A program made the translations under genes and the position numbers. Below, in pieces: positions 43,245 to 64,000 of a stretch of DNA of 64,000 bases. The notes beneath the pieces were generated by a model. It was given only the letters and a program-made list of their open reading frames with translations. It did no database searches and had not been told where the DNA came from. The DNA comes from Octopus vulgaris (taxonomy: Eukaryota), in NCBI GenBank assembly GCA_951406725.2, contig OX597825.1:76570001-76634000 (forward strand), read 5' to 3'. How positions within the stretch are numbered: position 1 is the stretch's first letter; each line of letters opens with the position of its first letter.

Positions 43245-43514
43245 TCGTCCCTTGTCTCTGTTTCCCTCTCACTCCTCACTCTCTCCGTTTTTTTGTTTTT
43301 GTCTCTGAAGAATGTCTTGTAAGTTCTCCATTGTCTGAACGACTGTGTTTATATCTACCAGTCTATCTGTCTGCCTGTTTGTCTTTCTGTCTTTCGATCT
43401 GTCTGCCTGTTTGTCTTTTTGTGTGTCTTTTGCTCTACCTGCCTATTTGCCAGTCAGAGTACCTACCTACCTACCTACCTACCTACCTACCTATTTTGGT
43501 CTAAAGAGTTGACT

Positions 43515-43720
43515 TACTCGACCAGAAGAAAATTCTAACTGGGCCCCACCTGCAAGGTCATGTGTTGTTTATCTTGATATGAGATCACCATGTCGCGCAC
43601 TTATGGTTGTGATGCACGTGCTTGGTGTACCCTTTTCAGACGGGTAGTCATGATGGGTATATTGGGCTTCGTATATTTTACCCCAGTGTCACTTTGATAG
43701 CATGCATTGCTCTCTCACTC
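43515..43720 (+). mobile_element. 5'-truncated copy of the 559-bp (AAT)n-associated element
   Basis: Matches the last 205 bp of 60490-61048; followed by (AAT)n. Confidence 0.88.
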
Positions 43721-43787
<67 letters not shown>

Positions 43788-43790
<3 letters not shown>

Positions 43791-44331
43791 CAGTACAAGG
43801 CAGTGGCTCTCATGGCTTCTGATCTTAACTGATGGAGTGTTATCATATACATTGTTTGTCTTAAAATAAAAGATGGGCTAAAGCAAATATTCTGCTCAGT
43901 ACTACAGATATGCTTGTCAGTTGTTTGACCTTAACAAGTTGAGCATGTTCCTTAGTGGCTGACAATATGTAGTTCTCTGATCACGGACAGAAGTAGTAGG
44001 GGAGCTTTATAGCCAGGTTTTGAGAGGAATTCTTTGGGGTTTGGATAATTCACCTTTGGAAACATGGGTGTTTCGTTCAATATCTTTAGACAATCCTTAT
44101 TCAGGGACCTTTTGAGCGGGATGGGCTTCACAACCTGAAGAAAAAAGTTTAACTGGACTCCACCTGCAAAGTCATGCGCTGTTAATCTTGATGTGGGATC
44201 ACTCTGTCGCGCACATATGGTTGTGATGCATGTGCCTGTTTACCCTCACCAGACGGGTAGTTATGATGGGTATACTGGACGTTGTATATTTTATTCCAGT
44301 ATCATTTTGATGGCATGCACTGCTTTCTTAC
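43788..44331 (+). mobile_element. Near-full-length diverged copy of the 559-bp (AAT)n-associated element
   Basis: Colinear with 60490-61048; (AAT)n on both sides. Confidence 0.88.
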
Positions 44332-44349
44332 GTAATAATAATAATAATA

Positions 44350-45170
44350 TTGACCCGGAACTATCAAGACAATGTGATGAAAAATGGCGTGGACCGAAAG
44401 TGCCGATATTGCAACGATGGGATAGAAACAGTGGACCACCTAATCTCTGAATATAAGGTTTTGGCACCTGCAGAGTACAAATCAAGACATGCCAGAGATG
44501 GTCAATATCTACATTGGATAATGTGTTGGGATTATAAAATCAAAATTGCTGACAAATGGTACAAGCGCCACCCTGAGGCTGTAACTGAGGGAGAAAATGT
44601 GACTATTCTCTGGACTTTCCATTATGTACAGATCGGATATTCAAGGCAAATAGACCAGATATTGTTGTGAAAGACAAAAGCAATAAAGTCTGTTCATTGA
44701 TTGTCATGAGCATACCCTGTCACCATATTATCTCGGCAAAAAAATTTGATAAGCTCAGAAAATATAAAGATTTGCTAATTGAGATTGAAAAGATGTGGCA
44801 TCTCAAGCTGGTTACAATACCAGTGATTGTAGGAGCACTTGGAATGATCAAACAAAGGAACTGATCCCTTGCTTACCATCCATGCAGGAAGTGCAAAAGA
44901 TTGTCTTAACTGGTTTGTCACACGTATTCAGAAGAGCATTGTCGCTGTAAATTTTCTTCCCCACCCCACTTTATTTTATTTGTTTACTTTTTTCTTTTTC
45001 ATTTTTATTTTTCTGTCTGTCTTCCCCCTTTTCTCTATCACATGACTCTGTAAATGAACAATCTCGTGTGCTTGTTTTAATGGCCTACCAATGTATACAG
45101 TACGTTTCTCTGCCCTGGGTGTCAGGAAGATACTCGGCAAGAAATAGAAACAGAACTGAAAGAAGATGCT
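44350..45170 (+). mobile_element. R4/Dong-clade non-LTR retrotransposon, 5'-truncated (CCHC knuckle, RLE, 3' UTR) in (AAT)n
   Basis: KCRYCNDGIETVDHLISE..RH..GQYLHW..ANRPDIVVKDK..KLRKYKDLLIEIEKMWHLK..IPVIVGALG; AAT repeats on both sides. Confidence 0.88.
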
Positions 45171-45192
45171 AATGAAAATAATAATAATAATG

Positions 45193-45288
<96 letters not shown>

Positions 45289-48850: not shown

Positions 48851-48976
<126 letters not shown>

Positions 48977-48994
48977 TTTAAGGTATCGCATCTA

Positions 48995-49510
48995 TTGTAT
49001 TTCAATTTCCCGGTTTTTATATTTACTTAATTTTTCATATTTCTTTACAGATATATTTTTATCCGTGGGAACACTTACATCTATTAGTCGTCAACTATTT
49101 TATTCCATATCTTTAATTACTATGTCTGGCCGATTAGCCTAAGTCGTTCTGTCGGTGTTGACTGGAAGATCCCAGATGATAGTGACATTTTTACCTTTAA
49201 TAACTGGCTCAAGATGATGTTCATTCAAGTAAGCAGGGTGTTTGATTTTGTAGTGTTTACATAGTTTCCAATGTAAATACTGTCCTAACCTGTCGTGGCA
49301 ATTTTTGTATTTGTTTGGTGTCAGCAGAGGACATCCCGACACGAAATGGTCTAGTGTTTCATCAAATTTATTGCACAATCTGCATTTAGAGTCAGAACTG
49401 TTTTGAAGAACGTTTGCTTGGTAGTTTTTTGTTAAGCAAGCTTTGATCCAGTGCCGCCAATATAAAATATTCACTCCCTACTTTCAGTTCAGAACTTCTC
49501 AGCCACTTAT
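48995..49510 (-). mobile_element. R4/Dong-clade ORF fragment (CCHC and RLE) with 5' junction in (AAT)n
   Basis: KWLRSSELK..ILAALDQSL..KCRLCNKFDETLDHFVSGCP..HDRLGQYLHW..IIWD..TDRT*ANRPDIVIKD..IDVSVP. Confidence 0.88.
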
Positions 49511-49537
49511 AATTATTATTATTATTATTATTGTTGC

Positions 49538-49974: not shown

Positions 49975-50200
49975 TATGTTTGACTTTTGCTTTGTATTTG
50001 TACAAGTTGGCTCCAAGTCTCACCCAGAGACCTCAAGAAACAACAAGTTAGATGTCCAGTGTGTCATATATTTGGTTTTGCACATGGTATTGTTCTAGAG
50101 AAGGTTTATTATTATTGTTGGAGCTCCTGGAGTCTTGCATTCGTAGCGGACTTACTACCTGCAGCTTACGGTACCATGTTATTCGTTCTTTTCAGCTATC
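49975..50200 (-). mobile_element. Probable R4/Dong-type 3' UTR ending in (AAT)n
   Basis: Minus strand ..gaggtctctgggtgagacttgg..aaagtcaaacat(aat)n; architecture resembles the 3' end at 45110-45170. Confidence 0.5.
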
Positions 50201-50296
50201 TAACACTTCCATTATTATATACATATATAATACGCACATTTTATATATGTATGTATGTATGTTTGAATGTATGTATGTATGTATGTATGTTATGTC

Positions 50297-60399: not shown

Positions 60400-60486
<87 letters not shown>

Positions 60487-60489
60487 TAT

Positions 60490-61048
60490 AAATGCCCTGA
60501 TGCAGTACCAGGCAGTGGCTCTCATGGCTTCTGATCTTAACTGATTGGAAGTGTTATCATGTACATTGTTTTGTCTTGGTATAAAAGATGGGCTACAGCA
60601 AATATTCTGCTCAATACCACAGATTTGCTTGTCAGTTGTTTGACCATAACCAGTTGACCATGTCCCTTAGTGGCTGACGATATGTGCATCTCTGATCACG
60701 AGCAGAAGTAGTGGGGGAGCATCATAGCCATGTGTTAGAGAGGGATTCTTTGGGGTTTGAATAATTCACCTCTGGAAACATGGGTGTTTCGTTCAACATC
60801 TTTAAACAACCCTTATTCAGGGACCTTTTGAGCAGGATGGGCTACTCGACCAGAAGAACATTCTAACTGGGCCCCACCTGCAAGGTCATGTGCTGTTTAT
60901 CTTGATATAAGATCACCATGTCGCGCACATATGGTTGTGATGCATGTGCCTGGTGTACCCTTATCAGACGGGTAGTCATGATGGGTATATTGGGCTTCGT
61001 ATATTTTACTCCAGTGTCACTTTGATGGCATGAACTGCTCTCTCACTC
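60490..61048 (+). mobile_element. 559-bp non-coding (AAT)n-associated element, full-length copy 1
   Basis: Starts aaatgccctgatgcagtacc, ends ctctctcactc; (AAT)n on both sides. Confidence 0.9.
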
Positions 61049-61060
61049 AATAATAATAAT

Positions 61061-61619
61061 AAATGCCCTGATGCAGTACCAGGCAGTGGTTCTCATGACT
61101 TCTGATTTTAACTGATTGGAAGTGTTATCATGTACATTGTTTTGTTTTGGTATAAAAGATGTGCTACAGCAAATATTCTGCTCAATATCACAGATTTGCT
61201 TGTCAGTTGTTTGACCTTAACCAGTTGACCATGTCCCTTAGTGGCTGATGATATGTGCATCTCCGATCACGAGCAGAAGTAGTGGGGGAGTATCATAGCC
61301 ATGTGTTGAGAGGGATTCTCTGGGGTTTGAATAATTCACCTCTGGAAACATGGGTGTTTCGTTCAACATCCTTAAACAACCCTTACTCAGGGACCTTTTG
61401 AGCGGGATGGGTTACTCGACCAGAAGAACATTCTAACTGGGCCCCACCTGCAAGGTCATGTGCTGTTTATCTTGATATAAGATCATCATGTCGCGCACAT
61501 TATGGTCGTGATGCATGTGCCTGGTGTACCGTTATCAGACGGGTAGTCATGATGGGTATACTGGGCTTCGTATATTTTACCCCAGTGTCACTTTGATGGC
61601 ATGCACTTCTCTCTGACTC
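61061..61619 (+). mobile_element. 559-bp non-coding (AAT)n-associated element, full-length copy 2 (tandem)
   Basis: Same 5' end, near-identical 3' end; separated from copy 1 by (AAT)4. Confidence 0.9.
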
Positions 61620-61711
<92 letters not shown>

Positions 61712-63587: not shown

Positions 63588-64000
63588 GAGTGAGAGGGCA
63601 GTGCATGTCATCAAAGTGACACAGGGGTAAAATATACGAAGCTCAGTATACCCATCATGACTACCCATCTGATAAGGGTACACCAGGCACATGCATCACA
63701 ACCATAAGTGCGCGACATAGTGATCTCATATTAAGATAAACAGCGCATGACCATTGCACATGGGGCCCAGTTAGAATGGTCCCTGAATATGGATTGTTTA
63801 AGGATGTTGAACAAACCACCCATGTTTCCAGAGGTGAATTATCCAAACCTCTAAGAATTCCTTTCAACACATTGCTATGATGATCCCCCACTACTCCTGC
63901 ACATATTGTCACTAAGGGACATGATCAACTGGTTAAGATCAAACAACTGTCAAGCAAATCTGTGATATTGAGCAGAATATTTGCTGTAGCCCATCTTTTA
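63588..64000 (-). mobile_element. 559-bp (AAT)n-associated element, diverged copy running off the window
   Basis: Reverse complement of the 3' part with small deletions; (AAT)n tail on its own strand. Confidence 0.88.

Follow-up and report, generated by a model that had tools for sequence, protein, structure and literature searches.

A non-coding retroposon family of octopus (AAT)n microsatellites, likely mobilised by Dong/R4 elements

Introduction

A 64,000-nt stretch of Octopus vulgaris DNA (contig OX597825.1; hereafter the window) holds two head-to-tail copies of a short sequence, the unit, with (AAT)n repeats before, between and after them. This locus raises the question of what the unit is and which enzyme places it in microsatellites. 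The original prediction, made from the letters of the window alone, described six copies of a non-coding, site-specific element and proposed that it is a SIDE- or SINE-like parasite of an R4/Dong enzyme. A SINE is defined in SINEBase as a non-autonomous retroposon of less than 700 nt with a tRNA, 7SL or 5S head and transcription by Pol III (PMC3531059), and the SIDE label requires homology to a partner element. One paper reports that Dong-R4 elements are numerous in octopus and have been active in recent times (PMC13282606), and its supplement lists 51 Dong-R4 consensus families in the octopus annotation. In the sections of a 2018 survey on which we draw, the only clades with reported bipartite non-autonomous derivatives are RTE, Ingi, Vingi and R2 (PMC5786205); a high-copy Dong/R4 passenger would extend this list. 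We found no description of the unit family in the literature searched, which included the accessible text of PMC9115989 and PMC8967140; Dfam and Repbase lay outside this search. Automated octopus libraries probably contain the unit, without a name, as one of their unclassified consensus sequences.

Results

All six copies that had been predicted in the window are present at their positions (Table 1). Their ends agree with the original prediction in part: the two full-length copies share one 5' end and two further copies are 5'-truncated, as proposed, but the copy at 43788, which had been grouped with the full-length ones, lacks about the first 10 nt. Likewise, a shared 3' end holds overall, except that the last 10 nt of the 43788 copy have diverged. 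The copy at 43514 is bordered on its 5' side by non-AAT sequence. The two full-length copies are 95.5% identical to each other and carry different subfamily variants, which suggests that they likely come from separate insertions. Dong/R4 sequences also lie in the window, including two R4-type 3' ends (45068-45176, plus strand; 49975-50075, minus strand), and the Dong/R4 fragment at 44347 is inserted within the AAT tail of the 43788 unit copy in the same polarity. Elsewhere in the window, an ORF fragment at 9650-9982, which by eye resembles the C-terminal region of a Penelope-like element, adjoins a 100-N gap.

Table 1. Copies of the unit, AAT tracts and Dong/R4 sequences in the window
Feature	Position	Strand	Remark
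5'-truncated unit copy, consensus 448-558	12878..12988	+	between two AAT tracts
5'-truncated unit copy, consensus 352-558	43514..43720	+	non-AAT 5' flank; (AAT)23 after it
Older near-full unit copy, starts at consensus 11	43788..44333	+	88% identity
Broken 5'-truncated Dong/R4 element	44347..45176	+	zinc knuckle, endonuclease, 3' UTR
(AAT)37 after Dong/R4 fragment	45177-45288		
Broken Dong/R4 fragment of another family	48974..49511	-	
3' end of a further Dong/R4 family	49975..50203	-	
(AAT)n target tract upstream of full-length pair	60400..60489	+	
Full-length unit copy	60490..61048	+	97.9% to family consensus
(AAT)4 spacer between the two full-length copies	61049..61060	+	
Full-length unit copy	61061..61619	+	96.2% to family consensus
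(AAT)n tract downstream of full-length pair	61620..61709	+	
Unit copy leaving the window edge, consensus 93-558	63588..64000	-	82%, internal deletions

The unit is a non-coding retroposon of 556-558 nt and belongs to a real family. As had been predicted, it has no ORF, stops interrupting all six reading frames, and no TIR; in self-BLAST and flank tables we found neither the terminal repeats of a MITE nor, as for an LTR, two copies flanking an ORF. In its size (558 nt, below 700 nt), its lack of an ORF and its TPRT-type ends the unit resembles a SINE, but it has no tRNA, 7SL or 5S head with an internal Pol III promoter: a tRNA search called none, and Rfam at E<=10 returned only chance matches and no tRNA, 5S, 7SL or snRNA. 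No A box is present and the sole B-box-like word is at position 301; the sense strand contains three internal T4 runs and no run of five T. The unit thus has no recognisable Pol III head, in line with the original prediction, and may be transcribed without one.

The family is abundant far beyond chance. A 29-nt pattern from its 3' end (two mismatches or fewer) gave 23,260 matches in the 2.8-Gb genome, a lower bound on the copy number, and the reversed control gave 0. A blind sample of 100 genomic windows of 10 kb contained 30 matches in 17 windows, or 10,122 bp per Mb (bootstrap ranges, 16-46 matches and 5.6-15.1 kb per Mb), which is about 1% of the sequence in this 1-Mb sample. Matches longer than 100 bp in the sample are 78-99% identical to the consensus, a spread that points to long-lasting activity. 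Unit sequence was found in sequencing runs from five organisms, and a genome search that started from an old copy led back to this family and to no distant subfamily.

The 3' end was reached by 21 of the 30 blind matches and the 5' end by 11 (both by 7), so the polarity of the unit is fixed. AAT follows the last unit base immediately in 103 of 119 copies. Flanks were AAT-like on the 5' side of 17 and the 3' side of 18 of the 26 scored matches, against a background of 0.87%, whereas a control tRNA-headed, AAT-tailed repeat gave 0/12 (5') and 9/12 (3') and the abundant tRNA SINE gave 2/182 (5') and 8/182 (3'). Therefore, AAT at both flanks characterises the unit family and not octopus SINEs in general, and the association with (AAT)n seen in the window holds in the sample, contrary to the case in which most copies would have non-AAT flanks. 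A preferred 5' end also exists, sharp and at one position: patterns of the same design counted 5,884 AAT-joined heads against 4 AAT-joined starts at position 176 and 12 at position 201, and 74 of 100 AAT-joined heads among the matches listed have the same 5' junction form.

Truncated 5' ends combined with a fixed 3' end bear out the earlier view of a TPRT-type element. The truncation junctions of the unit and of two Dong elements, Dong A and Dong B, are alike, with mixed registers and 0-6 nt of microhomology, and all three show short reiterations of the 5' end, which in the unit and Dong B would be expected from the template jumping described for R2 (PMC3414825). We found no head-only insertion followed by AAT (0 cases), and the junctions examined contained neither a target duplication outside the microsatellite nor an adjacent inverted 5' copy. 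Among 4 loci with non-AAT upstream tracts, one is suggestive of an AAT tail borne by the RNA.

In 116 blind windows, 93 segments lie between AAT tracts of the same strand. The unit stands at the end of 24 of them and Dong at the end of 19, in every case in the sense orientation; 7 end in a tRNA SINE (6 of them antisense) and 43 matched no assigned element. Dong elements were the only RT elements recognised as filling such segments; none of seven other RT or repeat ends inspected did so. The unit, with (AAT)n on both flanks, has the polarity of Dong and the 3' AAT register of Dong 3' ends. (Dong flank counts at match level are low, 3/19 and 8/22; they include internal cross-family matches and are not used as support.) At least 11 types of Dong/R4 3' end share (AAT)n tracts in the genome. 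Dong A has an intact ORF of 1,235 aa (RVT_1, E 1e-29) with a cysteine knuckle and a C-terminal endonuclease-like region, and its best solved relatives are R2 proteins; seed fragments of rarer Dong families contain stop codons. From the shared target, polarity, 3' register and junction style, the unit is likely mobilised by Dong/R4, and to this extent the proposal of a site-specific, non-autonomous element moved by Dong/R4 is supported. Of additional note, several Dong 3' ends by eye have hairpins that look alike, each with a bulge of 4 nt and located 40-60 nt ahead of the tail, and the 5' end of Dong A carries a 131-nt tandem monomer, present in at least 16 copies at locus L076 and also found at L063.

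Homology of the unit to Dong is another matter. We sorted 130 Dong 3' ends into 14 clusters, 11 of them real types and 3 artefacts, and no alignment with the unit exceeded those of shuffles (best z 2.6 over the 14 clusters). Three full-length Dong 5' UTRs did not match either, and nhmmer over 1.55 Mb with known copies masked returned only unit remnants. Since a SIDE requires homology to its partner and none was found in these sets, the label is unsupported; the suggestion that a different Dong family supplies the matching 3' end likewise fails among the 11 types and the three 5' UTRs. Three of the real 3'-end types were seen once only, so the sampling of Dong families is not saturated. By eye, the 3' end of the unit lacks the A-rich end and the bulged hairpin of Dong 3' UTRs. 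No unit copy examined in the blind sample, the junction tables or the AAT-segment tables was attached to an ORF or ran into one. When loose ends of the unit were followed in the reads and contigs of related organisms, the best-supported rows pointed to a TIR element, single loci and unit variants, and to no LINE; a longer parent element that loose read ends had suggested was rejected, being traced to the TIR element.

This TIR element is about 490 bp long, has more than 1,100 copies and imperfect arms of about 130 bp, and carries unit positions 105-274 at 96% identity (L211-L240); at one further locus (L205) its left arm is fused to the 3' part of the unit in a chimera. The unit piece in the TIR element has its starting point in common with several truncated copies and splits a predicted helix down the middle, which makes capture from the retroposon the likelier direction.

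The sense RNA of the unit is predicted to be strongly structured. Its fold has a z of -3.7 (0/60 shuffles as good), the antisense strand +0.2 and region 218-558 -5.5, and a single genomic copy gave -3.2 and -0.6; the controls are weaker (tRNA SINE -2.1, Dong B 3' UTR -2.6, Dong ORF -1.3). In the predicted fold a long stem is closed by the last unique bases, which border the AAU tail, and 23 of the 145 confident pairs are G-U. The fold is a prediction only, because the variants shared among copies do not favour it: beyond position 110, 12 keep pairing and 10 break it, and over all rows 13 of 26 keep it. The idea of an HDV-like ribozyme in the 5' 150 nt was not borne out, with no Rfam match and no P1 at the 5' end by a relaxed descriptor, which is itself uninformative in that shuffles match as well. 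Neither search found an HDV-like ribozyme in the Dong A or Dong B 5' UTR. A resemblance of the first 30 nt of the unit to twister was weighed by eye against consensus features of that ribozyme and dropped.

RNA reads of a related organism contain the unit (8,014 in 12.9, 6,755 in 12.0 and 5,988 in 11.5 million records). They cover it whole, evenly in both mate directions and with no pile-up at a start or end; because the libraries are unstranded and pile-ups are absent, these reads place the unit in RNA and do not imply a discrete transcript. A joint of position 140 to position 2 is present in 684 and 471 of these reads, or 26% and 21% of the local depth. The same joint has 344 matches in the genome, and at least 91 of the first 100 among the matches listed lie on one small contig, a concentration for which ectopic conversion would be a guess. 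Tandem arrays of the 139-nt head, with up to about 26 monomers, precede an ordinary unit body (L250-L264, L272; contig C30). Most arrays combine heads that differ from the consensus at no more than about 4 positions with bodies that have many private changes. Given this tandem reiteration and the over-representation in RNA of the related organism, the 139-nt head is a candidate promoter. Alternatively, the head arrays merely lie in expressed genes.

Discussion

Based on our findings, we lean with some confidence towards a non-coding retroposon that likely uses Dong/R4 proteins in trans and is not itself derived from a Dong element. The Dong endonuclease would nick an (AAT)n tract, and Dong reverse transcriptase would then copy the unit RNA from its 3' end. 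Recognition would come from pairing of the AAU tail with the nicked strand together with the shape of the RNA, rather than from a borrowed Dong 3' UTR. The RNA itself could be made by Pol II, with a start signal in the head of about 140 nt or by read-through, and not from a tRNA-type promoter or with a known ribozyme; this is the least certain step. Such a passenger without homology is unexpected, since R2 and R1 are reported to be stringent for their own 3' UTRs (PMC3414825). A bolder version, which we put forward tentatively and consider rather doubtful as a whole, is that the passenger has an independent origin and is recognised by nothing other than its AAU tail and the shape of its RNA. 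In this version its own 139-nt head starts the transcript and can multiply in tandem like a promoter monomer. If so, the octopus Dong enzyme would be relaxed and microsatellite-specific, with the capacity to insert unrelated RNAs into (AAT)n.

Several other readings of the same data have to be weighed. The unit could be a SIDE after all, formed by joining both ends of some rare or extinct Dong/R4 family that our sample missed: it has the target and junctions of Dong, and there is room for such a family among the coexisting 3'-end types, at least 11 with three real ones seen once in an unsaturated sample, and among the 51 listed consensus families (PMC13282606 supplement). We nevertheless think this unlikely, as the unit resembles none of the 130 Dong 3' ends, the three full-length 5' UTRs or the other 1.55 Mb, none of the copies examined continued into an ORF, the best loose ends led elsewhere, and by eye neither an A-rich end nor a bulged hairpin is present at its 3' end. 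That the unit is a true SINE, moved by Dong and dependent on Pol III for transcription from a head that has degenerated or escaped recognition, seems distinctly improbable: no match to tRNA, 5S, 7SL or snRNA, no A box, a B-box-like word at position 301 alone and three internal T4 runs all speak against it, even if a sharp 5' end at a purine, a length below 700 nt, a sense strand free of five-T runs and a structured RNA are what one would look for in a SINE.

The remaining two readings replace the mode of insertion. Another enzyme, an APE-type LINE or a Penelope-like element, might prime at AAT repeats, and both a tRNA-headed repeat with AAT on its 3' side and a CR1-like end with an ATT tail exist. 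We give this little credence, because the controls lack AAT on the 5' side (0/12; 2/182), no inspected non-Dong RT fragment filled an AAT-to-AAT segment, and the unit has neither a target duplication outside the microsatellite nor an adjacent inverted 5' copy. In a retrozyme-like scheme, which we regard as very improbable, a hammerhead would cut tandem transcripts, the monomer would circularise with its AAU tract, and Dong would copy the circle. This scheme predicts that copies share one 5' junction and have AAT at both ends, 16 and 10 RNA reads join the unit end to its start, and a candidate hammerhead-like motif (GUC at 173-175, CUGACGA at 185, GAAAC at 285) has a type III-like topology with a 5-bp stem III whose exact form occurs in 0/5,000 shuffles. 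But stems I and II of this motif are 2 bp each, a U-G pair lies beside the core, the forced fold costs 45 kcal/mol, and with strand order left free an equally good motif turns up in 5-12% of shuffles; no Rfam hammerhead matches, and AAT-joined starts show no excess at the cut site (4 vs 12). We thus rejected the motif as a well-formed hammerhead. Moreover, the tandem neighbours in the window differ by several percent (95.5% identity, different subfamilies), unlike the products of one pass round a circle.

The unit appears to work like R2 SIDEs and like EhSINE1, the partner LINE of which is presumably placed near R4, but it shows neither the homology and ribozyme of a SIDE nor the Pol III head of a SINE. 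It also resembles the tRNA-derived octopus SINEs, which we take to be of the OK and OR types, in being abundant, short, non-autonomous and sometimes located in AAT tracts; unlike the unit, these have tRNA heads, an AAT-like 5' flank in 2/182 and, inside AAT, mostly the opposite polarity. R2 SIDEs and R2/R1 hybrid SIDEs of Drosophila are described as short, non-coding, site-specific and not transcribed by Pol III (PMC3414825). According to the same source, R2 SIDEs keep the R2 5' ribozyme and an R2/R1-homologous 3' end and are confined to rDNA, whereas the unit shows neither this homology nor a ribozyme that can be recognised, and its copies are scattered over tens of thousands of microsatellites. 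The Entamoeba histolytica element EhSINE1 is likewise described as about 500-600 nt long, with no ORF, no known small-RNA precursor and no canonical A/B boxes; it has about 70 nt of 3' end in common with EhLINE1, T-rich sites with target duplications and polyadenylation (PMC2996970), in contrast to the unit, which has no shared tail and a microsatellite target. A reference title in that paper assigns the partner LINE a restriction-like endonuclease. Dong of Bombyx mori, DongAg and DongBg share with the unit a TAA-repeat target, an upstream junction ending in TAA and 5' truncation (PMC3812793, PMC3774820), but Dong is autonomous, and the 5' ribozyme of B. mori Dong, which is HDV-like and active (PMC3774820), is of a kind found neither in the unit nor in the Dong A and B 5' UTRs.

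A passenger without homology would bear on whether retrotransposons with a restriction-like endonuclease must recognise their own 3' UTR. Because the octopus genome supplies both an intact Dong enzyme ORF and a short natural cargo, this question is directly testable. The unit accounts for about 1% of the octopus genome, and AAT microsatellite markers in octopus would often be transposon junctions.

Three further observations came from the sampled loci. A short tRNA-headed repeat with AAT or AAC on its 3' side and a non-AAT 5' flank sometimes has an inverted 5' duplication (L087:1000-1072, L100:1272-1339, L126:7358-7416). L083:4411-6800 holds a broken RT element whose C-terminus is R2/NeSL-like and whose end is non-AAT, and a mir-980/mir-745-like hairpin at L068:8195-8264 scores 42 bits against an Rfam threshold of 47.
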